A DNA stretch of 39,898 nt from Anaerolineales bacterium. GTDB lineage: Bacteria; Chloroflexota; Anaerolineae; Anaerolineales; UBA6663. This document shows positions 717-39,184 of the stretch, in pieces; positions within the stretch are counted from its first letter, which is position 1, and each line of letters starts with the position of its first letter. The stretch covers positions 1-39,898 of the forward strand of contig JANWXR010000002.1 in NCBI GenBank assembly GCA_025057205.1, in the 5' to 3' direction. The position numbers were made by a program, and so were the translations under genes. The notes under the pieces were generated by a model, which was given only the letters and a program-made list of their open reading frames with translations, did no database searches and was not told the origin of the DNA.

Positions 717-817
717 CTGGACTTTGGCAAATGGAATTTTTGGTGCCAGATATGGCGGCCTGCTGCTTTGCCTGACCGCCATATCTTGTGTCCGAGCCAG
801 GATTTGCCAGACTCCAG
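717..817. mobile_element. 101-bp palindromic MITE-like element (family B), copy nested in the IS terminus
   Basis: About 87% identical (manual alignment, reverse orientation) to 17050-17150. It has terminal inverted repeats CTGGA(C/G)T(T/C)TGGCAAAT and a central 11-bp perfect hairpin AGATATGGCGG/CCGCCATATCT. It is bounded by TCACCTTA at 709-716 and 818-825. Confidence 0.8.
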
Positions 818-822
818 TCACC

Positions 823-1418
823 TTACGCAGCCAGCGGAGTGGGTTTGAGTTCTCGCAGGGCAGCAAAAGCGGATTGGATGGCACGCAGATACAACTTTGA
901 CTTGAGAGCAAAGTGATAGAGCTTCGTGTCGCCTTTGAGCAGTTCAAGCTTGATGTAACCGCACAAAGCCGCAAAGAAGTGGTTGGTTTGTGCCGGAGCA
1001 AACCAGATATCACTGAGCGCATATTTGATACGGAATCCGGTTTTTCACAGCTTGTTGCAACCGACAGCGATACGCCCCGGCTGTGAGATAAGCAAGTCAC
1101 AAAGTGGATGCCCTTGACATTGCGCTGTTTAGAATGGTCATCGTGCCAGCAAATGAGGTCGTTTGCGTCTGTGTACGGCTTCTCGGCAATACTGTCATCT
1201 ACAATCATGACGCCATCCGCGCTCTCCATCTGGCGCACATGTGGCTTGGCTATCCGCCATAAATCCGCCGAGGTCCGCTCCCGCCCCGCCAACATCCGTT
1301 GGATTTGGTCGTGGCTGACTTCTCCGCCCAACAGAGAAGACAAGCCGGTCGCCGTCGTCTGCCCGAAGGCGTTAATCAGATAATCACTGTACAGGTCGAA
1401 GAGTTTGCTGTTTTTCAT
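823..1418 (-). pseudogene. DDE transposase (IS701/IS4-like), internally deleted
   Basis: The N-terminus MKNSKLFDLYSDYLINAFGQTTATGLSSLLGGEVSHDQIQRMLAGRERTSADLWRIAKPHVRQMESADGVMIVDDSIAEKPYTDANDLICWHDDHSKQRNVKGIHF is transposase-like. After about 120 aa the listed ORF becomes nonsense. A different frame reads the family C-terminus ...QTNHFFAALCGYIKLELLKGDTKLYHFALKSKLYLRAIQSAFAALRELKPTPLAA*, with its stop at 823-825. The catalytic middle is missing. Confidence 0.75.
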
Positions 1419-1548: not shown

Positions 1549-4050
1549 TCAGTGAACAGCCTGGCTGCTGATGGCGGCAATCTCCGTTTCTGCGCCGTCC
1601 ACTTCGATCTGCCAATAGGGAGTCCAACCGATGCCGAATAGCTCTACGAGGATGTCGCCCCGGCGCGGCGTGACTCGGAGTTCCTGGATGTTTTGAGCGA
1701 GGTTCATCCACTTGCTCTGGCTGGCCTGGAACAATGCCTGCGCTTCGCGCTTCAGACCGTCAATCTGCGCTTGTAATCGCTGTACGGCCTCTTCGCCCTG
1801 TTCCACTTCCGCGCGCGTCTTTTTCACCAGCCGCGAGCGCATACTGGCTGTGGACATAGGCCGGTGGGGGGTGCGTCCCAGCATGAAGCCGATAATGTTC
1901 TCGATGCTCGTCCAGCGGTCCTCGGCCTCGCGGGCGCGCAGTTGCTCGCGGTCTTCTTCCAAGTCGCGCTGCGAAGCGATCAGCCGCTCTTCGAGGCGGT
2001 CGAGCTGACGGTCGAAGCGCGCGCGGATGGTCTCGACTTCAGCGTGCATCCGGGCATCCGCAGCGCGCCGGCACTCTTCCAGAAACTCGGCGTAGGACTG
2101 GCCGGGCCGGGAGACCAGCTTGAGCGTGGGGTTGTGGTAAAGGGTGAAATCTGCCGTGCGGTAGAGATAATTCACAAAGTCTTTCTGCCAGGCGGCCAGC
2201 TTCTTTGCATCGGTCAGGGCCAGCGGCACGTCGCCGCGCAGCACGGCGGCCTGCGGCGCGCTGCGCGAGATCGAGCCGGGCGCGAAGGCGGCGGTTTCGT
2301 GCTCGCGCCAGTGCGGGGCGAAATCCGGCGATGGGTCGGGCACGAGGCAGGCGAAGCGCCGGTCGGTGTTCAACTGCGCCTTCTGCGAAAGGTAGCGCAC
2401 TACGGCCTGAGTCAGCAGCGCAGGCCGGTACACTAGCGTTGCCGCTTCGCCAAACTGCGCGCGCCGATTGCCTGTCGCTGCGCGCCATTCAGCCACCGAG
2501 TCTTCTAGCGAACGCGCCGGCAGAAAGTATTGCGGGATGGCGGATGGTATGGCCTGTGATGGCCGGTTTTTGATTGTTGATTTCTGATTGGCCGCCGGCG
2601 TTGCCATGCTGCCGGATTTTCGGCTCGTGACTCCTGCTTCCCGCTCCCCGGCCTCCGGCCCTTGAACGGGCTTGAAGACGCGAATCTGTTCGCGCGTGAG
2701 CGGGCCGGCCAGGTAGCTCATCGCCCAGCGCGTCTGGAAGAGGACCGGGCCGTCACCGTGGACGTTGTTGAGCAGGAACTGGCGCGGGGCGAGCGAAGAG
2801 ATGAGTGAGTCGAGATCGGCGATGCGAAGATGGGCGCGCGCGGCGGAGGAGATGGTCTCCAGACCTTCGAGCAGGCGGGCCTTGTCGCGCTCGGTTTGCA
2901 GCTTGCCGATGAACCAGGTGCCGGTGTTGGTCAGGCCCTTATAGTCGAGGTCGCCGGGGTTCTGCGTGACCAGCAGCACGCCCAGGCCGAAGGCGCGCGC
3001 CTGTTTGAGCAGCCGCATCAACGGCGTCTTGGTCGGCGGGTTGAACGGGTAGGGCGGGAAGTAGCCGTACACCTCGTCGAAGTACAACAGCGCGCGCAGC
3101 GAGGTGGTTCCGCTCTGTCCGCGCAGCCAGGCCACCGCCTGCTCCAGCAGCAGGGTGATGAAGAACATGCGCTCTGGCTCGGTGAGGTGGGCGACGTACA
3201 GGATGGAGATGCGCGGTTTGCCCTCCGGCGTGCGCAGCAGCGCGCTGATGTCGAGTGGCTCGCCGTTGATCCACGACCGGAACGACGGCGCGGCGATGAT
3301 GGCGTTGAGGTCGAGCGCCAGCTTGAGGCGGTCGGCCTCGGGGTAGAAGCGGTCCACCTCGAACACGCCCAGCCGCTCGAAGGGCGGGTTTTGCACCTGC
3401 AATATCAGCTCGCCGAGGTCAAGCGACGGGTCGTTCTTCCAGGCGTGCTCGAAGAGGTTGGCGAGCAGGATGTGCTCGCGACTCTTCACCGGGTCGGCCT
3501 GCACGCCGATGAGGCCGAGCAGTCCCGAACAGACTCCGGCGATGCGCTCGCGCATCAGCTCCTGATTCTCGTCCCAGGGCAGGTCGGGCCGCTGCAGCGA
3601 TTTGAGGATGCTGATGGGCCGGCCAGCGTCGGAGCCGGGCGTGTAGAGCGCCCACTCGACCGAGTCCTTCAATCGCCTAAGGTGTTCCGGCCCCAGGCCC
3701 CACTCGGCCAGGCCGGCGCGCCAGCGTTCCGCCGCCTGTGCCGCGTAGGCTTCTACGGAGAGCTTCGCGCGCCGCGCCTCGTCCACGTTCACCCAGGGCG
3801 CGAAGTCCTCGGCCCTCAGCTCGGGGAATTGCAGCAGCAGGTTGGCGATGTCGCCCTTGGGGTCTATCAGGATGGCGGGCAGGCCGTGCAGCGCGGCCTC
3901 TTCGAGCAGGGTGACGCACAGGCCGGTCTTGCCGCTGCCCGTCATGCCGACGCAGACCGCGTGCGTGGTCAGGTCGGCGGGGTCGTACTCGAGGCGCCGG
4001 CCGGTGGGCTGTTGCGTGCGAGGATCAAGTTGTTGACCGAGAAAGAACAT
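1549..4050 (-). CDS. HerA/FtsK-superfamily P-loop ATPase (about 833 aa) with a C-terminal coiled-coil region
   Basis: Walker A GMTGSGKTG is encoded near 3922-3948 and a Walker B-like LLYFDEV is present, together with a VLLVTQNPGDLDYKG motif. The C-terminal segment is heptad-rich (RFDRQLDRLEERLIASQRDLEEDREQLRAREAE...). I moved the start to the ATG at 4048-4050 (MFFLGQQLDP...). The 89 upstream codons of the track ORF overlap the neighbouring gene and look non-coding. Confidence 0.8.
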   Translation of the reverse strand: MFFLGQQLDPRTQQPTGRRLEYDPADLTTHAVCVGMTGSGKTGLCVTLLEEAALHGLPAILIDPKGDIANLLLQFPELRAEDFAPWVNVDEARRAKLSVEAYAAQAAERWRAGLAEWGLGPEHLRRLKDSVEWALYTPGSDAGRPISILKSLQRPDLPWDENQELMRERIAGVCSGLLGLIGVQADPVKSREHILLANLFEHAWKNDPSLDLGELILQVQNPPFERLGVFEVDRFYPEADRLKLALDLNAIIAAPSFRSWINGEPLDISALLRTPEGKPRISILYVAHLTEPERMFFITLLLEQAVAWLRGQSGTTSLRALLYFDEVYGYFPPYPFNPPTKTPLMRLLKQARAFGLGVLLVTQNPGDLDYKGLTNTGTWFIGKLQTERDKARLLEGLETISSAARAHLRIADLDSLISSLAPRQFLLNNVHGDGPVLFQTRWAMSYLAGPLTREQIRVFKPVQGPEAGEREAGVTSRKSGSMATPAANQKSTIKNRPSQAIPSAIPQYFLPARSLEDSVAEWRAATGNRRAQFGEAATLVYRPALLTQAVVRYLSQKAQLNTDRRFACLVPDPSPDFAPHWREHETAAFAPGSISRSAPQAAVLRGDVPLALTDAKKLAAWQKDFVNYLYRTADFTLYHNPTLKLVSRPGQSYAEFLEECRRAADARMHAEVETIRARFDRQLDRLEERLIASQRDLEEDREQLRAREAEDRWTSIENIIGFMLGRTPHRPMSTASMRSRLVKKTRAEVEQGEEAVQRLQAQIDGLKREAQALFQASQSKWMNLAQNIQELRVTPRRGDILVELFGIGWTPYWQIEVDGAETEIAAISSQAVH

Positions 4051-4124
4051 GGGCACATTTTCGGTGCAAAGGCGTACAGGCGCAAGGCGCAAGCACGGCC
4101 CGGGATCACGAACGCAACGCACGT

Positions 4125-4595
4125 TCAGCGCCGCTGTGCCCACGGCGGCGCAACCAAAGCGAACCCCAGCGCCAACAGCCCGCCCAGCACACTCCAGCCG
4201 CCTAGGCTGAGCAAATTCAATTCCGGATTGGCGTTGGTCATGGTCAATATCTGGAATGCCTGAATGCTCAAGCCGCCCAGCGCCCAGACGATGAGCCAAG
4301 CCGCCAGCCAGCGGCAAGAAGGCCGCCAGAGAGGCAAGACCAGTAGCCCGCTCGCCAGGCCGCCTGCCAGCCCCGCAACGCCTCCGCTCACCAGCAGGCC
4401 CGGCAGCAACGCCGTCACAAAAACGATGCCGGCGAGAATCCAGTCGCCGGCCTGGTCGCCGAGGCCGACGGCGAGGGCGAATGTGAGTTGGCCGAGCACA
4501 GTTGCGATGAAGGCGGCGAGCAAGCCGCTCACGCCTCCGAAGAGGAACATCAGGCCGAGATTGCGCCGGGGATGATGAGAAGGTTGGCTCGTCAT
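4125..4595 (-). CDS. Small polytopic membrane protein (about 156 aa), function unknown
   Basis: From the ATG at 4593-4595 it reads MTSQPSHHPRRNLGLMFLFGGVSGLLAAFIATVLGQLTFALAVGLG... It has four or five Gly/Leu/Ala-rich hydrophobic segments and lies 74 nt upstream of the ATPase gene on the same strand. Confidence 0.6.
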   Translation of the reverse strand: MTSQPSHHPRRNLGLMFLFGGVSGLLAAFIATVLGQLTFALAVGLGDQAGDWILAGIVFVTALLPGLLVSGGVAGLAGGLASGLLVLPLWRPSCRWLAAWLIVWALGGLSIQAFQILTMTNANPELNLLSLGGWSVLGGLLALGFALVAPPWAQRR

Positions 4596-4941: not shown

Positions 4942-5166
4942 CTAGAGCCTCGCCCGACTTTCCCGAATGGCTTCGAGGATATCGCGTTTCGTGATTGGGA
5001 GCCTGACGCTCCTGACGTCAAAAGGCGAAGTCTTGGGCGGGCGCGCCGGGCGAATAACGAAGACCCGTCCGTCCCGGCTTTTGAACTTCACTTGCCCTTC
5101 GGCCAGGGCCTTCTCCAGCAGAGCCGGAAGCTGTTCGCGCACTTCGGCGTCGGTGTAAATAGTCAT
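4942..5166 (-). CDS. Type II antitoxin, Phd/YefM-like (74 aa)
   Basis: MTIYTDAEVREQLPALLEKALAEGQVKFKSRDGRVFVIRP... matches the usual Phd/YefM N-terminal pattern. It overlaps the upstream PIN gene by 4 bp in an ATGA junction (5163-5166). Confidence 0.7.
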   Translation of the reverse strand: MTIYTDAEVREQLPALLEKALAEGQVKFKSRDGRVFVIRPARPPKTSPFDVRSVRLPITKRDILEAIRESRARL

Positions 5167-9190: not shown

Positions 9191-10380
9191 TGCAGCTGAG
9201 TATCGCAGAAGTTCAGTGAAGCGTGAAGGAAGCAGGAGTTCGCCCTCACCCCGGCCCTCGTGGGCGAGGGGGCGGGGGGTGAATTTGAACCGCGAAGCCG
9301 CGAAGAGCGCGAAGGGCGCGCAAAGTTCTTCATGTTCCTTCGGGTGACTTCGAGTTGTGCAAATCGGACAAAAGCATAGCCCGGCTTCGCCGAGAAATGC
9401 TCATTTTGAATCGCGAAGACTCGTGGTGGAGGCGGCGATAGCTGATGCGGTTGCCCTCGAAGAGGATGGCCGTCTTCAACGGGAAGCGCCGCTAAGTGCA
9501 GGAATTTATAGATGGGGATATCGGGGATGTCGATGGTGTAGGGCACGTCAGAGTCATAATACGCCAGCCAGGGGCGCTCGCGCGTCTCCTCCTCCAGCCC
9601 GACGCCGGCGCGCCGCGTCTTGCGCCCCTGGATAAAGCGCTCGATGGCGCGGTTGACGGCGTCGCGGCGCCCCAGCATCATCAGGTGCGCACTTACCCCC
9701 ACATCCTCGGCGTCCTCAATGTGCTTGGCAATGTTGGCAAAGAACCGGGCCTCGAAGACCTGGTCGCGGTTGCTGCGGATGACGAGCGTGGGCACCCGCA
9801 ACCGGCGAAACTTCTCCCAGCCCGCCCAGCGGCTGAGGTTGTTGCGGTAAACGCGCTTCATGATCTGCGGCGAGGTGGAGAAGATCCGCTTCAGATAAAC
9901 GGTGTAGGCAAAGTTCAGCACAGCGTTCGGGATGCGCAGGGCGAGGCGGTTCAGCCAGGTCAGCGAATACTCGCCGGCGGCGGCGACCAGCACCAACCGG
10001 GACACGCGCTCCGGGTGGGCCAGCGCGTACTCGGTGACCACCGCGCCGCCGAACGAGTGGCCCAGCAGCACGCAAGGCTCGGTCACCCCCAGCACCTCGA
10101 GCGCGCGGTCAATATCCCCCATCATCTCTTCCATGGTGTAGGCCGAGTTGGCCGGCTCGTCGCTTGGGCCGAAGCCCCGCAGGTCGAGGGCGATACAGCG
10201 CGATTCGTCGGAGAAGCGCCGCAGCTGGTGCACCCATTGTGAGGCCTGGCCGCCGAAGTCGTGAATGAACACCATCGTCCGCGCCGGGCGATCCGGGGCC
10301 GGGTCAATGGCGCCCAGCCGCAGGCGCGGCTGCTCCGAGATGAGCACCTCGCGGCGGTAAAGCTCGATGTCAACGTCCAT
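9187..10380 (-). CDS. Alpha/beta hydrolase, in-frame with the truncated acyl-CoA ligase remnant; the C-terminal ~100 codons are probably not native
   Basis: From the ATG at 10378-10380 (MDVDIELYRRE...) it shows an HDFGG oxyanion-type motif, the nucleophile elbow GHSFGG, and a late His in VSAHLMM. The ORF then reads without a stop into the ligase N-terminus and through the REP-like repeat to a stop at 9187. Confidence 0.65.
   Translation of the reverse strand: MDVDIELYRREVLISEQPRLRLGAIDPAPDRPARTMVFIHDFGGQASQWVHQLRRFSDESRCIALDLRGFGPSDEPANSAYTMEEMMGDIDRALEVLGVTEPCVLLGHSFGGAVVTEYALAHPERVSRLVLVAAAGEYSLTWLNRLALRIPNAVLNFAYTVYLKRIFSTSPQIMKRVYRNNLSRWAGWEKFRRLRVPTLVIRSNRDQVFEARFFANIAKHIEDAEDVGVSAHLMMLGRRDAVNRAIERFIQGRKTRRAGVGLEEETRERPWLAYYDSDVPYTIDIPDIPIYKFLHLAALPVEDGHPLRGQPHQLSPPPPRVFAIQNEHFSAKPGYAFVRFAQLEVTRRNMKNFARPSRSSRLRGSNSPPAPSPTRAGVRANSCFLHASLNFCDTQLQ
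9243..9325. repeat. GC-rich REP-like hairpin plus a GCGAAG triplet tract
   Basis: An imperfect hairpin TCACCCCGGCCCTCG-TGGG-CGAGGGGGCGGGGGGTGA lies at 9246-9282. It is followed by CGCGAAGCCGCGAAGAGCGCGAAGGGCGCGCAAAG. This resembles intergenic repeat families common in several phyla. It sits exactly where the ligase remnant ends. Confidence 0.5.
9395..9576 (-). pseudogene. Acyl-CoA synthetase (AMP-binding) N-terminal remnant, frameshifted and truncated
   Basis: RPWLAYYDSDVPYTIDIPDIPIYKFLHLAA is a typical FadD-type N-terminus. One frame over it continues FPLKTAILFEGNRISYRRLHHESSRF. The rest of a ~550-aa ligase is absent. Confidence 0.65.
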
Positions 10381-20322: not shown

Positions 20323-22818
20323 GTGCATCTGATGTCATCTCCCTCCCCACAGAACACATCGGCAACGCCAGCGCCCGCTATGCCAACTTCGGCGGAAGCA
20401 AAAAACGCGCAGCGCGCCGCCCTGATTACGCTCATCGTCACCGCCGGGTTGACGGTGTATTTTGGGTTTCTGGCTTACCGGCAGCTCGATACCAACTCGA
20501 TCTGGGCTACGCTGAATACGCTCGGCATGACGCTGGCCAACCTGGCCGGCTTCTGGTTCAGCCGACGGGGTCGCCATGTGCTCGGAACATGGCTGGTTCT
20601 GGGCGGCTTGATGGTCGGCGTAGTGACATCACCGGCCATACGAGCCGGTCTGGGCCTGGCCCTCTTTATTAGCGCACCCTTGTTTGTTGCCGTCGTTGCC
20701 GGTCAGACCCTGCCGCCACGACAGGTTCCCTGGGCCGTCGGCCTGGGGGTCGGGGCAGGCATCATCGCCGGGCTGGGAGACTACTTCTGGCCGTGGCCCC
20801 GCCCCCTCTCGCCGGTCTATCAAACCCTGCCCATCATCGCCACCGGCGTGGTGCTGATACTGGGCTGGGGGATCGTGCGCCGCTTCCCGCACTACAGCCT
20901 GCGTACCAAGCTGTTGATAAGCTCCGTCACCGTGGTGGCGCTAACGGTCGGCGCACAATCCATCATTTTCAGCCAAATCGCCACCTCCGAAATTCGTGCC
21001 CAGGTGGGCAACAGTCTGGTCGCTCTGGCTGAGGACCGGGCAACGACCATCGGCAGCCGGATCGGCCTGCAGGCGGACGTGCTGCGCGCGCTGGCGCTCA
21101 ACAAGTTCCTGCAGGACGGGCTGGAAGAGGCCAGTCGCACCAACACGCAGAGCGCCGAGGCCCTGCGCGCCGCCGATGAGCGCTGGCGCCGGGCCGTGGA
21201 GGCAGGCCGGCCGGACGACCCGCTTATCCTTCAGGTGCTCAACCATCCACTGGCCGGCGAACTCAATGAACTCCGCGAGCGTTTCTCGCAATCCGAGCTG
21301 TTCCTGACCACCGACCAACACGGCGCTACGGTCGCATCCACCCAGGTCGTAGAACGTTACTATCACGGCGACGAGGCCTGGTGGCAAACGGCCTCTTCAC
21401 GCGGCATCTTCATCGGCCTGATTGAGCAGGGTTTCGGTGGTCCTCGACTCGGCATTGCCGTTGCCGTGCCCGCTCACGAGCGTGAGCAGATCGTCGGCGT
21501 GGCGCTGACCTTGCTCCACCTCGACCAATTTGCGGATGACCTGGCAAGCGCACGCCGCGGCAAGACAGGCCGCACCGAGATTTACTTCGAAGGTGGGGGT
21601 GGGCTGAAGTTACACGAAGCTGCCGACGGCAGCCTCAAACTCGAACTAGAGAGAGAGGCGAGGTTAGATTTGCAGCGGTTGATTGCGTCATCGGAGCCAT
21701 TCCTTGAGATCGAACACGATGGAAAGGTGGCGTTATCCAGCTCTGCGCGCGTCCGTTCCAATCTCAAGGCAGACCCTATCGGCGACGAGAGGGGCTCCAT
21801 TACTGGCCTGGGCTGGTACGTCGTTGTCTCTCAAGAAAAGAACGAGGCTCTGGAGCCGGTGGCTGTGATCATGCGCGCCAACTTTCTCATCACAGTCGTC
21901 GCCCTGCTGATTGCCGGCCTGGCAGCGGTGGTGGTGGCCCAATTGCTGACGCGCCCCCTCACCCGTCTGACCGCCGTGGCCGCCCGCGTCTCCGCCGGCG
22001 ACCTGAAGGTGCAGGCACCGGTGGAAAGCGGCGACGAGATCGGCGCGCTGGCGACGACCTTCAACGTAATGACCACACAGCTGCGTGAAACGCTCGAGGG
22101 CTTGGAACAGCGCGTGGCCGACCGCACGCGCGCCCTGGCCACCAGCGCTGAAGTCAGCCGACGGCTCTCCACCCTCCTTGACCCTACTGAGCTGGTGAAG
22201 CAGGTCGTTGAGCGAGTACAGCGCGCGTTCGGCTATTACCATGTACACATCTATCTGTTCGATGAGTCGCGTGAAAATCTGGTGATGAGGGGCGGCACGG
22301 GCGAGGCCGGCGCATTGATGCTGACACGCGGCCACAAGCTGCCGCGCGGCAAAGGCTTAGTCGGCCGCGCCGCCGAGACCAACCAGATCGTGCTTGTGCC
22401 CGAAACCGCGCGCGACCCCGGCTGGCTGCCCAACCCGCTGCTGCCGGAAACGAAGGCTGAGGTCGCCGTGCCTATTGCCATCGGTGAAGAAGTGCTGGGT
22501 GTGATCGATGTCCAGCACAACGTGGTCGGTGGGCTGACGCAAGACGACGCCGACCTGCTCCAGGCGATTGCGAACCAGATGGCCATCGCGCTCCAGAACG
22601 CCCGCATCTACCGGCAGGCGCAACGCCGGGCCGAGGTGGAAGCGCTGGTGAACTCCATTAGCCAGAGGCTTCAATCCACCACAACGGTAGATGAGGCGCT
22701 TCAAGTAACGGCGCGCGAAGTGGGCCGCGCCCTGGGCGGCGTGCGCGTACAGGTGCGTCTGGCCCCAACAAACGGACACACAGCGCCGCCGACCGGCGTT
22801 GCGGAATCGCAGAACTAG
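20323..22818 (+). CDS. Membrane sensor with no recognisable output: multi-TM N-terminus, Cache-like periplasmic domain, HAMP, GAF, conserved C-terminal tail
   Basis: The N-terminus has about six hydrophobic helices. A Cache-like segment reads ...[19 protein letters not shown].... HAMP reads [44 protein letters not shown] reads [13 protein letters not shown]...[30 protein letters not shown]. The protein ends 65 aa after the GAF domain with no kinase, cyclase, GGDEF or HTH. The track start at 20323 is GTG. An ATG alternative is at 20332. Confidence 0.85.
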
Positions 22819-22828
22819 GGAACCCGCT

Positions 22829-25552
22829 ATGCCACCAAACACTTCTGCGCCTTACCTCTCTCACGGCCACGACCCGTGGCTGGTCATGTTGTCCGTCGCG
22901 ATGGCGGTGCTGACGGCATACGCCGCGCTCGAACTGGCGTGGCGCATAGTTGGGGCGCGCGGCCGGGAGCGCTATCTGTGGCTGGCCAGCAGCGCAGTCG
23001 CTCTCGGCGCCGGCGCCTGGTCCGCGCATTTTATTGGGATGTCGGCCCTTCAGCTGCCTGTGCCGGTGCGGTATGACGTGCTCACCGCGCTGGCGGCGCT
23101 GCTGCCGGTGGTGGCCGGCGCAGCGCTGGCATTCTGGCTCAGCGGCAGAGCCAGAGCCGAAGTACGCCCGTGGCAGATCGGCCTGGCTGGCTCGGTCCTG
23201 GGCGGGGCCATTGCCGGTATGTACTTCATCGGCATGGCTGCCCTGCGCCTCCGAGCGACGTTCAGCTACGACCCGGCCTGGTTGGCGTTTGCGTTCGTCG
23301 TCGCCACAGTCACTTCGAGCTTTGCGCTTTGGCTGCACGTAGGCCTCCGTGCCGCCGCTACGTCTGCTAGGCAGCTGGGCAAAATCGCCGGCGCCCTGGC
23401 GCTGGGCGGCGCGATTGCCGGCCTGCACTACGCCGGGATGCGCGCGGCTAAGTTCCTGCCGACGACCGACTACTTGCCTAATCCCATCGGCCTGGTTGAC
23501 ATTGACGTACTCGGCTCCGCAGCCATCATCGTTGGCGTTCTAACCGTAATCACCACCGGCCTGACGGTCTTGGTGTTCAACCAACAATTGCTGAGTCAAC
23601 TCAGCTTTACACGCAAATTCCTGCTCGTCAGCGCGCTCTTCATCACGCCGCTTCTTGTCGTCATCGGCGTGTTCTCCTTCGAGCTGTACGATCGTATTGA
23701 TAAATACGGCTACCGCGAACTGTACGGCGTTCGCTATGTGACGCCGCTGCAAAGCCTGCTCGTTAACTTGCAATTGCATCAGGAAGCGCTGGCCGAATAC
23801 GCCGCCGGCCGACTGACCGAACAGCAGTTGCTCGACGTTCGGAGCGCCGTTGATGCCGACTTAGCCACCCTTGCCGAACTAGACCGCCGGTATGGCACGA
23901 TATTGCAAACTAACACATGGCTATCCAGTCTGAGGTATAAGTGGTCTGGCCTGCAAAGCCAGACACTCCGGTTCTCGCCACAGGCCGCCCGGTTGCGTCA
24001 TATCGAATCGGCAACGAACGTACGTGAGTTGATCGCCTACATCGGCGACAGCTCTTTCCTAAGCCTTGACCCCGACCTGGATAGCCACAACTTAATGAGG
24101 GCAACACTAATCCACCTGCCGGATAATCAAATGTTGCTCAACCGGTCGGCGCAGATGTTCCTGGCAACACTACACGGAGAACTGGTAACGCCGGAAGAAA
24201 GAGCACAGCTCTCAGCAGCGCTCACATTATTGCGTGCTAATCTCGATGCGTTGGAGGCTGAGCTTGAGGTAGCTTATCGCAACCACCCAGACGGCTTCAT
24301 TGAGCCGAACCTTGCACCGGAGTTTGCCGCCTATCGCCAGGTCCTGACAGAATATTTGGACTTCCTGAAATTTCAGCTGAACCTGACGAAACCGACGGTC
24401 TCCCTCTCGGATGCCCGGCGCCTCATCGGCGAAGCGCGCGCCGCAAATCAGCGGTTTTACGCTGTGGTCAGTGAAAATTTGGCCGCCAGCATCCAGGGCC
24501 GGATTGACCGCTTGACTTTTCGCCTGGCCAGTTTGGTTGGGTTCAGCCTATTCACCGGCGCCTTGGCGCTGGCCTTCGGCCAGGCGGTGTTCCGCGTCAT
24601 CCTTCGGCCGCTGCGCGCCCTGACTGACGCCACACAGGCTCTAGCAGGCGGCGATTTGAGCGTGCGCGTCAACGTGGTCGGCTCTGATGAGATAAGCACG
24701 CTGGCGCTGGCCTTCAACGACATGGCCCGCCGCCTGCAGCTGAGCCAGACCGAATTGGCTGAGCGCAACCGCGCTTTGGCCACTTCGGCAGAGGTCAGCC
24801 GCCGCCTCTCGACGCTGCTGGATGAAAAGCAGCTGGTGCGGGAGGTCGTCGAGCAGTTGCAACTGGCCTTCGGCTATTACCATGTCCACATCTACCTTTT
24901 CGACGAGCAGCGCGAAAATCTGATAATGGCCGGCGGCACCGGCCCGGTGGGCGCGGCGCTGCTAGAGCGCGGCCACAAGCTACCACGTGGCAAGGGCCTG
25001 GTCGGCCGCGCCGCCGAGACCAACGCACCCGTCATCGTGCCGAACACCACGCTCGACCCAGGCTGGCTGCCCAACCCGCTACTGCCGGACACCAAAGCCG
25101 AAGTCGCCGTCCCCATCGCTCTGGGCAACGAAGTGCTCGGTGTGCTGGACGTGCAGCAGAACATGGTCAACGGCCTCTCGGCTGCCGACGCTGAGATGCT
25201 TCAGGCCATCGCCAACCAGGTCGCGCTGGCGCTGCGCAACGCGCGCTCCTATGCCCGCGCGCAACGCACCGCCGAGCGCGAGGCTTTGGTCAACAGCATC
25301 AATCGCAAGATCCAATCTGCCGCTAGCCTGGAATCCGTGCTAGACATTGCCGCGCGCGAACTAGGCCTGGCGCTGAGAGCGCGCACCGCCGTTGCAGAAC
25401 TCAACCTGCGCCCCGCAATGGAACGCTCAACCACTATTGCGACGGCTGACGAACGAAGGCCGAGCGCTCGCGCCAAACTTGAAATAAGCAGAGCGAACCC
25501 GGTCAGCACCGGCTTCATTGACGCAGAAACCAACGGCCGCAGTCACAGTTAA
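22829..25552 (+). CDS. Membrane sensor with no recognisable output: MHYT domain, helical periplasmic/linker domain, HAMP, GAF, conserved C-terminal tail
   Basis: Three MHYT-type motifs are present ([29 protein letters not shown]) in six TM helices. HAMP reads [41 protein letters not shown]. The GAF domain is about 75% identical to that of the preceding gene. I chose the ATG at 22829 because the track start at 22799 is TTG and overlaps the previous gene. Confidence 0.85.
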
Positions 25553-25561
25553 AGTCGCGCT

Positions 25562-28500
25562 ATGAACGCACCTGAACTATCTCCCCACAAGAAAGCCGTA
25601 CCCGGCCTGAACACATTGCAGCGCATCTGGCAATCGCTGGTGCAGCCATCGGCGCTTATCACCGAAATCGGCGAACGCCGCCAGGCCGAGCTGCTGGCCT
25701 CCCTGACGCTGATCTTCATTTCTCTCTCGAGTGCAGGCGCGTTTGCCAACCTGGTGACCGTGCCAGGCCGCGGGTTCAATGCCGCCTCATGGGCGCTGTT
25801 GGCGACGACGCTCGTGACGCTGGTCGCATATCTTCTTAGTCGCAGCCGCTATTTTCGTCTGGGCGTGTGGCTCCTCATCATCATCCTTGTTGCAGGTGGC
25901 TTCTCTTTGGCTCAAAGTGACCCGAGCCGCGCCAGCTTTGCACTCTTCAGGTTTGTGCCACTTGCATTTGTCGTCACCAACATCTTTTTGAACTTTACCG
26001 GCGCCGCCATTGTGATGGCACTAACCGTTGCTGCCTTGCTGATGCTGCCTCTCTGGCTCGACGTGACGCCGCGCGAGGCCACTTCGCTGGCCGGTGCCCT
26101 TGGCGCGTTTGGCACGTTGCTGCTCATTGCCGCCGGCTTCCGCAACAAACTGGAACGCGACCGCCTGGCCGAGCTCTCGGCAGCCAATGAGAAACTGCGA
26201 ACCCTCGGTGCACTGCTGGAACAACGCGTCGCCGAACGTACCCGCGACATTATCCTGGCCGCCGACGTGGGCCGGTCATTAGCCAAAGCTCGCGACCTTG
26301 ACACACTCCTGGCCGACGCTGTAGAGCTGATTCGCGAACGCTTCGACCTGTATCACGTTCAAATCTACGTGACGGACTCCGCCGGGCACAAATTGCTGCT
26401 CCGCGCCAGTAGCGGCGAGGTGGGCGCAGAGCTGCTGCGCCGTCGACACTACCTGCCTGTCAGCCTCGGCTCGCTCAACGGCCAGGCAGCACTGGAACGC
26501 CGCCCAGTGCTCGTCACCAACACACTGTCCGACCCCAACTTCAAGCCCAATCCTCTCTTGCCGGAGACCCGCTCCGAGGCCGCCATCCCGCTTATCGCCG
26601 AAGGCCGTGTGCTGGGCGTGCTCGATCTGCAAAGCAATCAACCGGGTGCGTTCACGGCAGAGAGCCTGCCCGTCTTCGAGACACTGGCCGGCCAGCTCAC
26701 GATCGGCATCGAAAACGCGCTCCTGCTGCGGGAGGCCGAAGCCGCTCGCAACGAGCTGGCCGAGCAAACGCGCCGCCTCAGCCGCAGCGGCTGGCAGGCT
26801 TTCCTCGATGCCATTCACCGGGCTGAACATGTGGAACGCCGCTATGTGAGCGAGGCAGCAGAAGCCACAGAGCTCGCAGCAGCGGACGAAGAACGCTCCG
26901 TTTTGACCGTGCCCATGACCATCGCCGGCGAAGCCATTGGCGCACTGCGGGTGGAGGCCGGCGAACAACGTAGCTGGTCGGCAGATGAAGTCGAATTGGT
27001 AGAGGTGGTTGCTCGGCAGGTAGCCGCGCATCTGGATGACCTGCGCCTCATCGCTCAGGCCGAGCAATACCGCGCCGAGGCCGAGGACGCTATGCGTCGC
27101 CTGACGCGAGAGAGCTGGCAGATGTACCTGGTCGAAGCCGAGAAACCGCCCGCCTACGTGTACGACGGCGAGCAAGTTCAGACCGTGTCCGATGAAACCG
27201 CTTCGGTTGAACCCAGGCACATCTGGCCGCTGACCTTGCACGGCGAACGACTGGGCGAAATTGCCATCGAGGCCGAGACCGTCGGGCCGGAGGCCGAGCA
27301 CATCCTCGCTGCCGTCGCCGAGCGCCTCAGTGTGCATCTGGAGAACCTGCGCCTCTCCGCCCAGACCGAGCAGGCGCTCACCGAGAATCAAAAACGCGCC
27401 GACCAGCTAGCCCGACTCTCCGAGATAGAACAGGCGCTCTCATTGGCAAAGACCGAAGAGGAAATCATCGAAGCTATACAGCCCGCCTTCGACGCAAAGA
27501 ACCTGACGGCCATCACCCTTACCTACATCACCGGCGACGAACGCGGTCGGGCGATGACGCTCGATGGCGCGGCAGTCTGGGCTGACGGACGGTTCTGCCA
27601 CGACCGGTTGCCTGCTCTACAAAACCTGAGCCTTGAGAAGCACCCCCTCACACCGCTCTGGATGACGCGTGCCGCCGAACCGACCTTTGTCGGCGATGTG
27701 CTGACCGACCCGCGCGTCGGTGAAGCGGTACGGGCGTTGGCCCGTGAAGAGGGTTGGCGTTCACTGCTGTTGCTACCGCTCCGCAGCGGTGGCCGGTGGC
27801 AGGGGCTGCTCACCGTGAGCTGGGCAGAGCCGCGCACGCTTAGCGCCGATGAGGCCTTCTTCGCCGAGCGGTTGCTGGAGTCGGTGGCCGGCGTTACCGC
27901 CACCCGTTGTGCTTCCCTGGCGCAACAACGAGCTCTGGCAGAAAACCTGCGCCGCAACGAGGAACTGACCGCCCTCAATCGGCTTGTCATTAGCGCCGCT
28001 TCCGCGCGCGACGTGACGGAGCTGCTGCAATCCGCCGCCCGCGAAGTGGTGCAGCTGCTGCACGCCCGCAGCGCCGCCTTCGCCCTGCTGGAGCCGGACG
28101 GCCAGCATCTGCGATTGATCGCCGACTACACTACCACCAGCGACGAGCCGAGCGCCGTCGGCATGCTCATCCCCCTGGCGGGTAACCTCTCGACTCAATG
28201 GGTGTTCGAGCACCGGCGCGCGCTGGTGGTGAATGACGCCCAGAGCAATCCGCTGACGACGCCGATCCACGAGCTGATGCCCACGCGCCGGACGCAGGCG
28301 TTGCTCATCGCGCCATTGACAGTCCGCGGCGAGGTCATCGGCACGCTGGGCGTAGACCTGGAAGAAGTGGGCCGCACCTTCACCCCAAACGAAGTCTCGT
28401 TCGTCGAAACGCTGGCCGGCCAGCTGGCCGGTGTGCTGGAGAACCTGCGCCTCTACGCCGAAGCGCAACGCCGCGCCGAGCGCGAGTACCTCATCAACAC

Positions 28501-28633
28501 CATCACGCAGAAGATCCAGAGCACGACCACCGTGACCGGCGCACTGCAAACAGCCGTGCAGGAGCTGGGGCTGGCACTCAAAGCCAAACGTACACATGTA
28601 GAGCTAAGCCCGGCGCCGATCAACGGCCACTGA
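25562..28633 (+). CDS. Membrane-anchored multi-GAF protein (1023 aa) with no recognisable output and the same conserved C-terminal tail
   Basis: It has about five N-terminal TM helices, then a coiled coil, then repeated GAF and half-GAF-like modules ([30 protein letters not shown]; ...[16 protein letters not shown]...). It ends [50 protein letters not shown]. Confidence 0.85.
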   Translation: [1023 protein letters not shown]

Positions 28634-34033: not shown

Positions 34034-35710
34034 ATGGCACGACCTTCCTATCTTGAGTGCGTTCACTGCGGCGATCGGCAGCCGTACGTTCCGTTCATAC
34101 CGCCGGTGTGTGCACGCTGCGGCTCAGAGTGGCTAGAGCCGTGGTACGACTACGCCGCCTTTAAGCGCGAGCTGCTGCGCGGGTTGCCAGGCCGCCCGGC
34201 CAATTTGTGGCGCTACCACGACGTCCTCCCGGTGGACGACCCGTTGCGCTTCGACCTGAACAGCGCCGGCGGTACGCCCATGTTGCACTCGCGCCGCTAC
34301 GCCGACCGCCTGCGCCACGCACAGCTCTACATCAAGGATGAACGCCATGGCCCGACCAGCTCGTTCAAGGACCGGCAGGCCGCGGTGGCCGTCGCCGCCA
34401 TGCTGGAAGCCGGCGTCCGTGAGTGCGTCATCGCCTCCACCGGCAACGCTGCCGTTGCCTACGCCTCCGCTTGCGCGCGTGCCGGCATCAAGCTGTGGGT
34501 GTTCATGACCAGCCTGGTGCCCAACGAGAAGCTGCGCGAAGCGGCGCTCTTCGGCGCAGAGGTCATCAAAGTCAGCGGCAACTACGACCAAACCAAGCAA
34601 ATCGCCGCTGACTTCGCCAAACGCCGTGGCCTGCTGCTGGACCGCGGTGCGCGCAGCATCCCGGCGCGTGAGTCCATGAAGACCATCGCCTATGAGATCG
34701 TCGAGCAGCTGGGCTGGCGCGCGCCGGACTGGTACATCCAATCGGTCAGCGGCGGGCTGGGGCCGCTCGGCGTCTATCACGGCTTCAGCGAGCTGCAACA
34801 CATGGGCCTGATTGACAAAATCCCCAAGCTGGGCATCATTCAGGCCGAAGGTTGTGCGCCGATGGTGCGCGCCTTCAAGGCAGGGCGGGACACCGCTGAG
34901 CCGGTGACGCCCGAGACGCGCATCGCCGTGCTTTCCACCGGCGACCCGGGCCGCACCTACACCTATCTCTGGCAGCTGGTGCAGAAGCATGGCGGCGCCA
35001 TGGAGAGCGTCTCCGACCATGCGGCCTGGGACTCGATGCTGACGCTGGCCAAGGCCGAAGGCATGGCCGTCGAGCCGGCTGCTGCCGTCGCCTTTGCCGG
35101 CTTCGAAAAGCTGCTAGCTCAGGGCCATATCCATTCGGAGGAGCTGGTCGTGATCAACGGCACCGGCCACACCTTCCCTGTGGAAAAGCACGTGCTCGGC
35201 GAGCAGTGGCACGTGGACGTGCACTTGAGCGACGACATGCGGCCGGCCCCGCGCGAGGGCCTGCTCGCCGCGCTCAACCAGCTCGATGAGAAGGTGACCA
35301 GCGTGCTGCTGGTGGACGACAATCCCGACGACGCGCTGCTCATCCGGCGGTTGCTGGAGAACCGCAAGTCGTACCGCGTCTTCACCGCCAGCAACGGCGT
35401 GGATGGACTGCGGCAAGCTCGCGAGCGCCTGCCTGACTTGATCATCACCGACCTAACCATGCCGGAAATGGATGGCTTCACTTTGCTGGAAGAATTGCGT
35501 CATGACGCGCGCACCCGCAACATTCCGGTAATTGTGGTCAGTGCACGCGACATCACCGCCGACGAGCGTGCCCGCCTGAACGAGGCAGCGATCGAGGCTC
35601 TTTACGAGAAAGGCTCACTCTCACCACGTGCGTTCGTGGAACAGGTCGTACAGGTGATCGGCGACAAGACGTCGCCGGGTGGAAAGACATCGCCGAACGG
35701 AGGTCATTGA
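34034..35710 (+). CDS. Threonine-synthase-like fold-type-II PLP enzyme with an N-terminal zinc ribbon, fused to a C-terminal receiver (REC) domain
   Basis: A CxxC...CxxC ribbon is present (CVHCGD...CARCGS). The PLP-lysine motif is PTSSFKDRQAAV, and STGNAA and GGLGPLG motifs follow. The C-terminal REC reads VLLVDDNPDDALLIRRLL...LIITDLTMPEMDGFTLL...VVSA. Confidence 0.8.
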   Translation: MARPSYLECVHCGDRQPYVPFIPPVCARCGSEWLEPWYDYAAFKRELLRGLPGRPANLWRYHDVLPVDDPLRFDLNSAGGTPMLHSRRYADRLRHAQLYIKDERHGPTSSFKDRQAAVAVAAMLEAGVRECVIASTGNAAVAYASACARAGIKLWVFMTSLVPNEKLREAALFGAEVIKVSGNYDQTKQIAADFAKRRGLLLDRGARSIPARESMKTIAYEIVEQLGWRAPDWYIQSVSGGLGPLGVYHGFSELQHMGLIDKIPKLGIIQAEGCAPMVRAFKAGRDTAEPVTPETRIAVLSTGDPGRTYTYLWQLVQKHGGAMESVSDHAAWDSMLTLAKAEGMAVEPAAAVAFAGFEKLLAQGHIHSEELVVINGTGHTFPVEKHVLGEQWHVDVHLSDDMRPAPREGLLAALNQLDEKVTSVLLVDDNPDDALLIRRLLENRKSYRVFTASNGVDGLRQARERLPDLIITDLTMPEMDGFTLLEELRHDARTRNIPVIVVSARDITADERARLNEAAIEALYEKGSLSPRAFVEQVVQVIGDKTSPGGKTSPNGGH

Positions 35711-36092: not shown

Positions 36093-36126
36093 AAGACCCC
36101 GCGATTTATCCCTTTGCCCCCACACC

Positions 36127-36160
36127 AACCGGCCGGACTTGGCACCGTCGGTTTCTCTTT
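36127..36160 (+). terminator. Weak candidate intrinsic terminator after the receiver gene
   Basis: AACCGGC...GCCGTCGGTT forms a 7-bp stem including one G-U pair. It is followed by the T-rich TCTCTTTC. The loop is long, so this is low quality. Confidence 0.3.
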
Positions 36161-36244
36161 CTATCCTCTCAAAATTCTGCCGACCGTCGCCAAGTCACCA
36201 ACAAATTCAAACTGTTCACGCCCTTCTGCACTACCACCGAACCC

Positions 36245-36273
36245 TTCCCACCTTTGCCCAAAGCATTTATGAT
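36245..36273 (+). promoter_or_regulatory. Candidate sigma-70-type promoter for the riboswitch transcript
   Basis: TTCCCA (36245-36250), a 17-nt spacer, then TATGAT (36268-36273), about 50 nt upstream of the aptamer. It overlaps a perfect 9-bp inverted repeat CTTTGCCCA/TGGGCAAAG (36252-36260 / 36275-36283). Confidence 0.35.
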
Positions 36274-36321
36274 ATGGGCAAAGTGAGTCACGGAGCCTGG
36301 CAAATCTTCAGGCTCTAGCCA

Positions 36322-36412
36322 TACAGAAAAAGGCAAACCCGTCGAAAGGCGGGGGCGCAAAGTTACGGGTCTAAGCGCTTGCGGCTGCAAGCGGATGATC
36401 GCCGGACTGCCT
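36322..36412 (+). promoter_or_regulatory. c-di-GMP-I (GEMM-I)-like riboswitch aptamer
   Basis: The sequence reads GGCAAACCCGUC-GAAA-GGCGGGGGCGCAAAGUUACGGGUCUAAG-CGCUUGC-GGCU-GCAAGCG-GAUGAUCGCCGGACUGCC. It has the hallmark GGCAAAC, a GAAA tetraloop hairpin, the GCGCAAAG junction, and a UCUAAG...GAUGA tetraloop-receptor-like hairpin. From memory, V. cholerae Vc2 reads GGCAAACCAUUCGAAAGAGUGGGACGCAAAGCCUCCGGCCUAA. GGCA (36332-36335) can pair with UGCC (36408-36411). Confidence 0.7.
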
Positions 36413-36433
36413 GACGAACCACTTGCTCTCCCA

Positions 36434-36468
36434 ACCTCGGCAGTCCGCAAATGCCGAGGTTCTTTGTT
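36434..36468 (+). terminator. Intrinsic terminator (riboswitch expression platform)
   Basis: A perfect 9-bp stem ACCTCGGCA / TGCCGAGGT (36434-36442 / 36452-36460) has a 9-nt loop and is followed by TCTTTGTT. Its 5' arm and loop, GGCAGTCCG (36439-36447), are perfectly complementary to CGGACTGCC (36403-36411) in the aptamer's 3' strand. Confidence 0.7.
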
Positions 36469-36636
36469 ACTCGGTCTGTGTTGTTGACGGAGATTGATGA
36501 TGACAGCCTGACGCCGGTTTGCCCACTCATCGTTAACCACCGGTAAAAAGCCTCGCTAGATTGCGTCAAACTCGTGGGAGATCGCGGCGCCGTCGCCATC
36601 ACCCCCGAAAAGTTTCTTAGTTAGAAAGGTGCTCTC

Positions 36637-36846
36637 ATGTCCCACAATCCTCACTGGCTCTCAGCGGATACCGATACCGAACTCACCTGGCCGGCGTGGC
36701 TGCTTTCGGACACGCTGACGGACGATGCCTCACCGCTGAAAAGCCTGGCGCGCCATCGTCGTTACGGCTACAACGCCGACGAACCCTCACCCTCGCCGCT
36801 GCGCATCATCGCGCGCGATCGGCGCCCACCGCGCGCCACGCGCTAG
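36637..36846 (+). CDS. Hypothetical small protein (69 aa), possibly the first piece of a decayed gene
   Basis: The ATG is preceded by GAAAGG. About 75% of third codon positions are G/C (counted by eye), similar to real genes here. I recognise no motif. Coding-like signal continues downstream, but only in shifted frames. Confidence 0.3.
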   Translation: MSHNPHWLSADTDTELTWPAWLLSDTLTDDASPLKSLARHRRYGYNADEPSPSPLRIIARDRRPPRATR

Positions 36847-37616
36847 CCGCCGCTATATGGCCGGCACGCTCACGCCGAACAGTGCCGTGCCGGTGATGGA
36901 ACTGGGCCAGCGGATGCTACGCCGCTATACGGCGCTGTCATTGCGCCGTAACCGCTGAAGATGCGGTTGCCATCGAACGTGACGTGGCGTTCGGTAACGC
37001 AGCCGTGGCCACAACCGCCGCGCGGCTGGCCTTCGCGATGTCGCACGTGAAGGTGTTCCCTCTCAGTATGACCTCATCCCTAATGGACGGTGAAGGCTAC
37101 GTAAAGGTCGAGCAGGGAAGGCGGATAAGGCTATACTTTGGCGATTGTCTCCACTGAACCATCGCGGTTCGACACCTCCGCCGCCACTTTAATCGTGGTT
37201 GAGGAGGTGTCCTATAATCAGCAGTTGGGCCTATCCGTCCACAGGCAGACGCTGAGTTGTTGCAAGAGTGCTCGTGATGGTAGGGTTCGGTCACAACACA
37301 ATCGTCTCGTGATGAAAAGGCGAGCAGCAGCGTAGGCCTTGGGAAGGCAGAGCGGCATTCGTCACGGTCACAATGACCGGCAAGGTGATGTGGGCTTGGT
37401 GTGACAAAGTGCTTGCGATTGGCGACGGCCTGGGTGAGCAGTGGCCAACCATCGGAGAGTTGGGGAGAACGTCTAGCGCGGTCGGGGAACGGCAAAACGA
37501 TATTCAGGGTTGAGCGTGGCCGGTTGTCGGGCGATGGTGTGGTGCAACCACAGCAAGCGTATAGGTCAAGGTCTTTGTGGGTTCAGGTTCGTTCCGGCGC
37601 ATAAGCTGCGTGGGTT

Positions 37617-37718
37617 TAGAGCGATTTCCAGCTTGATTTACGGCAAGGCGTACAAAATTCGAGCTATTTTCAGTGAATTTCTACTGTGGAGCCGTAAATC
37701 AATTAGGAATTCGCTCTA
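37617..37718 (+). mobile_element. 102-bp MITE-like element (family A), copy 3, intact
   Basis: TAGAGCGATTTCCAGCTTGATTTACGGCAAGGCGTACAAAATTCGAGC...AATTAGGAATTCGCTCTA has 13-bp terminal inverted repeats with one mismatch and begins and ends with TA. Confidence 0.85.
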
Positions 37719-37915
37719 GGCGCGGCGTGGGCCGGTCATGACCCGCCCCAACAGGCGGTTTCCAGCCGACCGCTTCGCTCCGCTGCGTGGGTGGCTAAAA
37801 CCCAAGCCGTTAGCCCACCTGGTCCGCCAGGTCGTGCAGTCCATCTTCGGGAGCTATCGCGCTTTACGTTTTTACCAACCGATTGTGGTTTCGTGATGTA
37901 TTGACAATTGGGTGT

Positions 37916-39184
37916 ATGGTCTTCGATCAAGCAACGATCATAGTGCGCTCGGGCGACGGCGGCGACGGGGCGGTACACTTTCGCCGCGAGAAATATGTGC
38001 CACGTGGTGGCCCAGACGGCGGCGACGGCGGGCGCGGCGGCGATGTGATTCTCAAAGTGGACCCGAAGCTCAACACGCTCCTGCACTTTGCCACCAAACG
38101 CAGATTCGTAGCGAAGAATGGGGGGCGCGGCGGAAGGAACCACATGCGCGGTAAGAGCGCCGAGCCGCTGATTGTGCCAGTGGCGCCAGGCACCGTCGTC
38201 CGCAACGCCGAGACCGGCGAGGTGCTCGGTGACCTGGTCGAGCCGGGGCAGACGCTGGTGGTGGCGCGCGGCGGGCGTGGTGGGCGCGGCAATGCGCGCT
38301 TCGCCAGCTCACGCAACCAGACGCCGCACGTTGGCGAGCGCGGTGCGCCCGGTGAGGAAGTGACGCTCACATTGGAGTTGAAGCTGATTGCAGATGTGGG
38401 CATCGTCGGCGTGCCGAACGCGGGCAAGTCCACCCTGCTCGCCAGCGTCACGGCGGCCAAACCGAAGATCGCGCCGTACCCGTTCACTACACTGCAGCCT
38501 AACCTGGGCGTGGCCCTGCTCGATGAGCGCAGCGGCGAGACGCTGGTGCTGGCCGATATCCCCGGTCTGATCGAGGGCGCACATCGCGGCGTAGGCTTGG
38601 GCTTCGACTTCTTGCGCCATGTCCAGCGCACCCGCGTCCTCATCCACCTGCTCGATGGCCTGAGCGCCGACCCGCTGGCCGACTTCTCCCAAATCAACAC
38701 CGAGCTGGCGCTCTTTGACGAAGCGCTGGCCCAGAAGCCACAGCTCGTGGCGCTCAACAAGATGGATTTGCCGGAAGTGGCCGCACGCTGGCCGCAGGTG
38801 GAGGCGGAGCTGAAGCGGCGCGGCTACGAGTGCGTTGCCATCTCCGCCGTGGCCGGAACCGGGGTGCGCGACCTGCTGTTCCGCGCCGCGCGCCTGCTGG
38901 CCGAGGCCCCGCCCGCGCCGATCTTCGACGAGTTGCCCGTTTACCGCCCCGCCTTCGCCGACGACGAGTTCACCATCAGTCGTGACCCCGACGGGGCGTA
39001 CCGCGTGAGCGGCAAAAAAATCGAGCGCGCTGCTCGCATGACGTACTGGGAATACGACGAAGCCGTGTTGCGCTTCCAACGTATCCTCGAGGCGCTGGGA
39101 GTCCGGCGTGAATTGGAGGAGGTCGGCGTGCGGGAAGGCGACACCGTGCGCATCGGCGAGTACGAGTTGGAGTGGAGCGACTAG
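37916..39184 (+). CDS. obg: GTPase Obg/CgtA with a C-terminal OCT-like extension
   Basis: The Obg fold reads FDQATIIVRSGDGGDGAVHFRREKYVPRGGPDGGDGGRGGDV. G1 is GIVGVPNAGKSTLL, G3 is DIPGLIEGA and G4 is LNKMD. The C-terminal segment reads ...ERAARMTYWEYDEAVLRFQRILEALGV. I chose the ATG at 37916 over the upstream track start. Confidence 0.9.
   Translation: MVFDQATIIVRSGDGGDGAVHFRREKYVPRGGPDGGDGGRGGDVILKVDPKLNTLLHFATKRRFVAKNGGRGGRNHMRGKSAEPLIVPVAPGTVVRNAETGEVLGDLVEPGQTLVVARGGRGGRGNARFASSRNQTPHVGERGAPGEEVTLTLELKLIADVGIVGVPNAGKSTLLASVTAAKPKIAPYPFTTLQPNLGVALLDERSGETLVLADIPGLIEGAHRGVGLGFDFLRHVQRTRVLIHLLDGLSADPLADFSQINTELALFDEALAQKPQLVALNKMDLPEVAARWPQVEAELKRRGYECVAISAVAGTGVRDLLFRAARLLAEAPPAPIFDELPVYRPAFADDEFTISRDPDGAYRVSGKKIERAARMTYWEYDEAVLRFQRILEALGVRRELEEVGVREGDTVRIGEYELEWSD

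Follow-up and report, generated by a model that had tools for sequence, protein, structure and literature searches.

What does a c-di-GMP-I-like RNA element sense and control in a neighborhood that has no GGDEF, EAL or PilZ gene? The question is raised by a stretch of 39,898 nucleotides from an uncultured Anaerolineales bacterium (Chloroflexota), referred to here as the window, in which the original prediction placed such an element and a terminator at positions 36322-36468. It was read as an OFF switch, and the choice between c-di-GMP and 3'3'-cGAMP as ligand was left open. The absence of GGDEF, EAL and PilZ genes was confirmed by Pfam scans of 30 ORFs covering the window, which detected none of these domains. 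Our analysis suggests, with a probability of roughly 0.85, that the element is a canonical class-I cyclic-di-GMP riboswitch acting as a transcriptional OFF switch, which most likely stops transcription when c-di-GMP is high.

Scanning of the whole 39.9-kb window with cmscan (Rfam 15, curated gathering thresholds, GA) returned a single match at 36323-36415 on the forward strand. The matching model is RF03167 (c-di-GMP-I-GGC), which is covered in full (model positions 1-80) with 71.3 bits versus a GA of 59 and an E value of 4.2e-15, and a second member of clan CL00126 also scores above its own GA. The sequence noticed by inspection is thus a c-di-GMP-I (GEMM-I) aptamer by family membership. In the model alignment, it folds into a P1 helix of only 3 bp (36324-36326/36411-36413, with the pairs C36324-G36413, A36325-U36412 and G36326-C36411), P1a (G36333-C36358 and C36334-G36357), P1b (36338-36343/36348-36353), P2 (36361-36371/36397-36408) and a distal P2 hairpin of 7 bp (36376-36382/36387-36393). 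Across an alignment of nine copies, which are few and closely related, pairing in P1a, P1b and P2 reaches 99-100%, and three base pairs of P1b and P2 show compensatory changes; in slid-register controls, pairing drops to 18-48%. P1 is poorly conserved and is paired to 40.7% in the same alignment.

In the Vibrio cholerae aptamer Vc2, the ligand is contacted by G20, A47 and C92, and the interhelical Watson-Crick pair C44-G83 is universal in the class (PMC4744006). By model-alignment position, the window has G36332, A36359 and C36410 at the three contact sites. The interhelical pair is represented by C36356 (model position 34) and G36401 (model position 66), which are mapped to C44 and G83 by consensus reading and not by a 3D model. 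The GAAA tetraloop of P1b is located at 36344-36347, and CUAAG at 36371-36375 together with AUG at 36395-36397 matches the receptor in the RF01051 consensus ('CUAAg...uAuGa'). A deviation is found at G36355 in the internal loop (GAC to GGC), where RF01051 and RF03167 both have a strongly conserved A; this change is common to eight of the nine copies of this Anaerolineales clade.

One part of the original prediction had to be revised, namely the helix proposed to close the aptamer upon ligand binding. The segments GGCA (36332-36335) and UGCC (36408-36411) are indeed complementary, but the P1 helix of the family is formed by CAG (36324-36326) and CUG (36411-36413). The GGCA/UGCC helix cannot be the ligand-bound fold because it uses G36332 (G20), the P1a bases G36333 and C36334, which pair with G36357 and C36358, and the ligand contact C36410 (C92), next to which G36409 is a junction base. 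A GGC/GCC closing helix was also proposed by RNAalifold for the nine copies and was rejected as ligand-bound fold, as it conflicts with the family model, which is based on crystal structures. The RNAalifold helix gives no covariation evidence because its columns are invariant, and it could exist transiently without ligand.

Downstream of the aptamer we found a G+C-rich hairpin with a U-tract, and in addition a mutually exclusive helix that is made with aptamer bases. The hairpin is the predicted intrinsic terminator that had been recognized in the sequence, and it spans 36433-36468 on the forward strand. Its perfect stem of 10 bp, including 6 G-C pairs, joins A36433-A36442 with U36452-U36461 around a 9-nt loop and has a folding energy of -16.4 kcal/mol alone, and it is followed by the U-rich tail UUCUUUGUU, which ends at 36468 and in which the U-tract is broken by one C and one G. 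A pattern scanner missed this terminator because the maximum loop it allowed was 8 nt. The switching strand CGGACUGCC (36403-36411, forward strand), composed of the lower P2 3' strand, the junction G, C92 and the first P1 base, can pair either with the aptamer interior or with the antiterminator partner GGCAGUCCG (36439-36447, forward strand), which comprises the uppermost 3 nt in the 5' arm of the terminator together with the loop. As originally claimed, the two 9-nt segments are exact reverse complements; in 41 of 20,000 shuffles, the aptamer 3' end had a perfect complement of at least 9 nt within the 60 nt that follow it.

The calculated energies are consistent with a switch between these two helices. 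The 9-bp antiterminator helix has -15.1 kcal/mol, and the minimum-energy fold of a transcript truncated at 36447 contains it. In the full-length RNA, the minimum-energy fold with the terminator (-53.8 kcal/mol) and the best antiterminator fold (-52.4 kcal/mol) are near balance. The values for the family fold plus terminator and for the antiterminator state are -49.9 and -42.4, respectively. Terminator/antiterminator or sequestering helices are generally used by c-di-GMP-I riboswitches, with OFF as the usual logic (PMC11218506). The covariance-model match, the folding energies and the retention of the same design in related copies all lend support to the predicted OFF-switch model.

These related copies were recovered by exact look-ups and one metagenome pattern scan from Anaerolineales metagenome contigs. 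They are located at L005:80-169, L003:3512-3601 (L003a) and L003:6934-7023 (L003b), with two more in L090, three in L092, two of which are in tandem, and partial copies in L004 and L091. The window element itself recurs in two independent metagenome assemblies, unchanged or with 99.8% identity. A hairpin and a U-tract are found 3' of all complete copies (9/9), and the homologous terminator of L005 has a run of 9 U. The sequence GGCAGUC, located where the terminator 5' arm meets the loop, is kept in five copies (window, L005, L003a, L003b and L090b), while the terminator stems of the same five differ (AACCUCGGC, CCUCGGC, AGCCCUGGG, AGCCCUCG and CCCCUUGGC, respectively). An invariant loop sequence beside variable stems is what an antiterminator predicts and therefore supports the OFF-switch model. 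The aptamer strand of L003b has an A-to-G change but can still pair with the antiterminator partner through a G-U, and L090a and L092b have a different, co-varying antiterminator pairing of CCUAAG with CUUAGG.

Some of the copies show arrangements of their own. The tandem c-di-GMP-I aptamers of L092 (3430-3528 and 3635-3733), each with its own terminator, are located ahead of S8 protease and GGDEF+HD-GYP genes, and the third aptamer copy on this contig (2514-2612) precedes a 204-aa ORF. In L091, only the aptamer 5' half is found (766-852, reverse strand, 38 bits), and it runs directly into an ATG and a signal-peptide-like ORF, so that it is apparently a riboswitch that has decayed or been truncated.

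On the 5' side of the aptamer, a consensus scan detected a putative promoter at 36245-36273 on the forward strand (TTCCCA and TATGAT separated by 17 nt, 9/12 matches), which ends approximately 50 nt before the aptamer. A palindrome (CTTTGCCCAAAGCAT/ATGATATGGGCAAAG, 36252-36266/36269-36283) overlaps this site and straddles the -10 element TATGAT (36268-36273); a DNA-binding regulator might use it as operator, or it might form an RNA hairpin if transcribed. Directly 5' of the aptamer, a leader hairpin of 9 bp is predicted by folding at 36292-36316 on the forward strand, and similar hairpins immediately precede the aptamers of L005 and L003:3512. The segment 36127-36153, which was considered as terminator of the upstream response-regulator gene, forms a weak hairpin (region -12.4 kcal/mol, z = 0.3).

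The only plausible gene under riboswitch control is, as we infer from its position, a 69-aa ORF at 36637-36846 on the forward strand, which is preceded by a Shine-Dalgarno-like AAGGUG (36626-36631). The gap between the terminator and this ORF, which has the same orientation, is 168 nt, and a consensus scan of the sequence from the terminator to the ORF start found no promoter-like site; owing to the length of the gap, an unrecognized promoter there could uncouple the gene from the riboswitch. Homologues of the 69-aa protein form three clusters, are all 69 aa long and are 80-88% identical. When the gene is compared with each of three homologues, 31-37 substitutions are seen per pair, of which 15-25 affect the third codon position; the flanks of the gene cannot be aligned. 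Judged from this substitution pattern, the ORF is a real coding gene under purifying selection. The protein has no Pfam family and no match among GTDB species representatives, and a profile search for relatives among 1.84 billion representatives yielded only two additional matches, which were repetitive and not credible. It is an orphan without homologues outside the clade, with an acidic N-terminal half and a basic, Arg-rich C-terminal half (RHRRY, RDRRPPR). An AlphaFold2 model from a 4-sequence alignment was unusable (pLDDT 55, pTM 0.16). About 40 nt upstream of the start codon, a short G+C-rich hairpin was noticed by eye in the window (36584-36596), in L005 (~5035-5053) and in L003 (~9942-9960), and its stems differ between the three (GCGGC/GUCGC, GCGACGGC/GCCGUCGC and CGACAG/CUGUCG, respectively).

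In the related contigs, the 69-aa gene is found in an operon with the order riboswitch, S8 protease, small protein, GGDEF+HD-GYP enzyme and 69-aa protein. It is located approximately 95 nt 3' of a 915-924-aa GGDEF+HD-GYP gene in L003, L004 and L005-L008, and in the encoded enzymes the RxxD-x5-GGEEF and GYP motifs are both intact. This gene is headed by a riboswitch of the same type, with the S8 protease gene and the small ORF sometimes ahead of it. Window positions 36305-36468 with the aptamer and terminator are 82% identical to L005:62-220, and positions 36589-36850 with the 69-aa gene are 81% identical to L005:5045-5307, whereas the ~4.8 kb between these two parts of L005 have no counterpart in the window. 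A tblastn search for traces of the operon genes absent from the window, or of a convergent 1179-aa gene, found only the 69-aa gene itself. The locus looks like the operon of the relatives with its middle removed, and the window would lack GGDEF, EAL and PilZ genes because this operon was apparently trimmed to the riboswitch and the 69-aa gene. In L009, the 69-aa gene follows a response-regulator gene, as in the window, but neither an aptamer nor a GGDEF+HD-GYP gene is present, and positions 1427-1520 match L003 6820-6918, which immediately precedes the L003b aptamer. The upstream module of the 69-aa gene is evidently labile.

Such a loss of genes could have left the element as a stranded relic, in which the controlled operon is deleted and no useful regulation takes place, the terminator ending read-through from the sensory operon or the 69-aa gene having its own promoter. 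The retention of the riboswitch, terminator and 69-aa gene around a ~4.8-kb deficit relative to L005, the failure of tblastn to detect remnants of the missing genes, the occurrence of the 69-aa gene without any aptamer in L009, the half aptamer in L091, which indicates that decay happens within the clade, and the surrounding 1.8 kb, which are ORF-poor and not syntenic with the relatives, would all be in line with a relic. However, the element retains all conserved core bases together with an intact terminator and 9-nt antiterminator, it is almost unchanged between the two independent assemblies, the 69-aa gene is intact and apparently under purifying selection, and no promoter-like site separates it from the terminator. 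A relic is improbable on this evidence, though it is the alternative that fares best, and a working riboswitch ahead of the 69-aa gene is the reading that we prefer.

The wider surroundings of the locus are distinct from those of related genomes. The downstream Obg protein (37919-39181) has 96% and 90% amino-acid identity to two Anaerolineales/Anaerolineae MAGs, and its 80 best loci are all from Chloroflexota, but none of these 80 loci shares the synteny of window positions 36100-37880. The approximately 1 kb between the 69-aa gene and obg (36850-37880) has no ORF of more than 132 aa, a lower G+C content of 50-60% and no counterpart upstream of obg in the 80 related loci; GC skew is strongly positive at 37200-37600. 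A permissive E-value search of 36416-37950 against Rfam gave nothing credible. Just after the 69-aa stop codon, a direct repeat (CGCCGCTATATGGC/CGCCGCTATACGGC) occurs at 36848-36861 and 36920-36933, 72 nt apart. Two short nucleotide matches of 62-75 nt were found between the window and the L003 1179-aa gene, and positions 36873-36946 match part of this convergent gene with 80% identity. An inverted repeat of 28 nt (37617-37644/37691-37718, 86% complementary, 46-nt spacer) is located in the ORF-poor stretch upstream of obg, and two nearly identical Logan contigs, L001 and L002, both stop at window position 37644/37645, exactly where the left arm of the repeat ends, which suggests either that the assembly broke at a long hairpin or that the boundary varies between strains.

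Further upstream, three consecutive large sensory proteins without recognizable output domain (20323-28633, forward strand; Cache-like-HAMP-GAF, MHYT-HAMP-GAF and four GAF domains) are encoded directly before a 1659-aa PAS/GAF histidine kinase. Between this kinase and a stand-alone receiver protein, a gene at 34034-35710 (forward strand) encodes a 558-aa protein with a PLP-dependent, threonine-synthase-like domain (PF00291) and a C-terminal receiver domain. A 93-nt tRNA-Gln(UUG) called by ARAGORN at 4102-4194 on the reverse strand lies inside a 922-aa HerA-like ORF (1549-4317) and is probably a false positive.

As to the ligand, the name of the best-scoring model points away from the parental class. 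Weinberg et al. in 2017 reportedly used 'GGC' for the bases at positions 20/47/92, and an RNA of the c-di-GMP-I-GGC class (RF03167) would have an altered pocket and perhaps a ligand other than c-di-GMP. RF03167 is the best clan model for the window, well above its GA, and it is again the top model with 57 bits when the query is trimmed to the core (36328-36411). The consensus lines of RF01051 and RF03167 have a single core difference, GCAAAg versus GCGAAg, in the base just 3' of P1a. The window core reads GCGCAAAG and thus keeps the parental A at A36359, the A47 equivalent, where the RF03167 consensus has the G that defines the variant, a diagnosis obtained by comparing the two Rfam consensus lines. 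Moreover, the sister copy L003:3512-3601, which is 86% identical to the window copy and has the same core, is matched best by RF01051, with a score of 78 bits (GA 35) that belongs to the sister and not to the window copy. What favors RF03167 is apparently not the pocket but the modelled P1 and the greater length of the distal P2 hairpin. Membership in the GGC variant class is accordingly quite unlikely; with G36332, A36359 and C36410 all canonical, we assign the aptamer to the standard c-di-GMP-I type, not to the GGC or the cGAMP (A20) variant.

The least probable alternative, that the aptamer senses 3'3'-cGAMP as a GEMM-Ib aptamer, draws on the facts that GEMM-Ib aptamers have the same overall fold, are close variants that also match GEMM-I models, and that sequence cannot prove specificity, but cGAMP recognition depends on A20 and the wild-type G20 discriminates against cGAMP (PMC6140456), whereas position 20 is a G in the window (G36332) and in all nine relatives, and the genes associated with the relatives encode GGDEF+HD-GYP enzymes of c-di-GMP metabolism with intact motifs. 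The choice left open by the original prediction is narrowed accordingly: with G at position 20 and canonical A47 and C92, c-di-GMP is the predicted ligand.

The window element shares with RF01051 and Vc2 the two-helix aptamer, the GAAA tetraloop and its receptor, the G20/A47/C92 pocket, the interhelical C-G pair and the 5' leader location, as well as, in the relatives, the association with c-di-GMP turnover genes. It differs from them in the A-to-G change at G36355, 3' of P1b, in the longer distal P2 hairpin, in the very short P1 and in that its only downstream gene encodes an orphan 69-aa protein. A terminator-type c-di-GMP-I OFF switch is known from Clostridioides difficile, where Cd1 is located upstream of the flagellar operon. 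Similar to such Firmicutes switches, including Bc1 of Bacillus (PMC11218506), the aptamer in the window is followed by a rho-independent terminator, and the ligand is expected to favor termination. Bc1 has two terminators (PMC11218506) and the window one. In contrast to the Firmicutes switches, the element in the window uses the P2 3' strand, C92 and the first base of P1 for its antiterminator, and the phylum is Chloroflexota.

We propose the following mechanism for the switch. Transcription would probably start at a promoter near 36245-36273 or reach the element by read-through from the response-regulator gene. At low c-di-GMP, 36403-36411 would pair with 36439-36447 as soon as the latter is transcribed, and this antiterminator would block pairing of the terminator 5' arm, so that RNA polymerase could proceed into the 69-aa gene at 36637. 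Binding of c-di-GMP through G36332, A36359 and C36410 would lock P2 and the short P1. With the switching strand occupied, 36439-36441 would be free, the 10-bp terminator (36433-36461) could form, and transcription would stop at the U-rich tail.

With this element, a well-formed c-di-GMP-I riboswitch and a small subfamily with multiple copies become known from the uncultured Anaerolineales (Chloroflexota). Its switching helices can be read straight from the sequence and have comparative backing. The Rfam label 'GGC variant' would mislead annotators in this case, because the pocket bases are parental. The aptamer and the terminator/antiterminator platform are of a known, standard type, and the only unusual point is the tiny orphan gene that they appear to control here. 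This 69-aa gene is the sole lead beyond routine annotation. As the last gene of riboswitch-headed GGDEF+HD-GYP operons in the relatives and the sole gene kept in the window, it might encode an unrecognized c-di-GMP signaling component of the Anaerolineales, such as a small effector or a protein that partners with the GGDEF+HD-GYP enzyme, a reading that we put forward tentatively. Since two independent contexts, the riboswitch here and the GGDEF+HD-GYP operons elsewhere, tie the gene to c-di-GMP, its product would be a cheap candidate for c-di-GMP binding.
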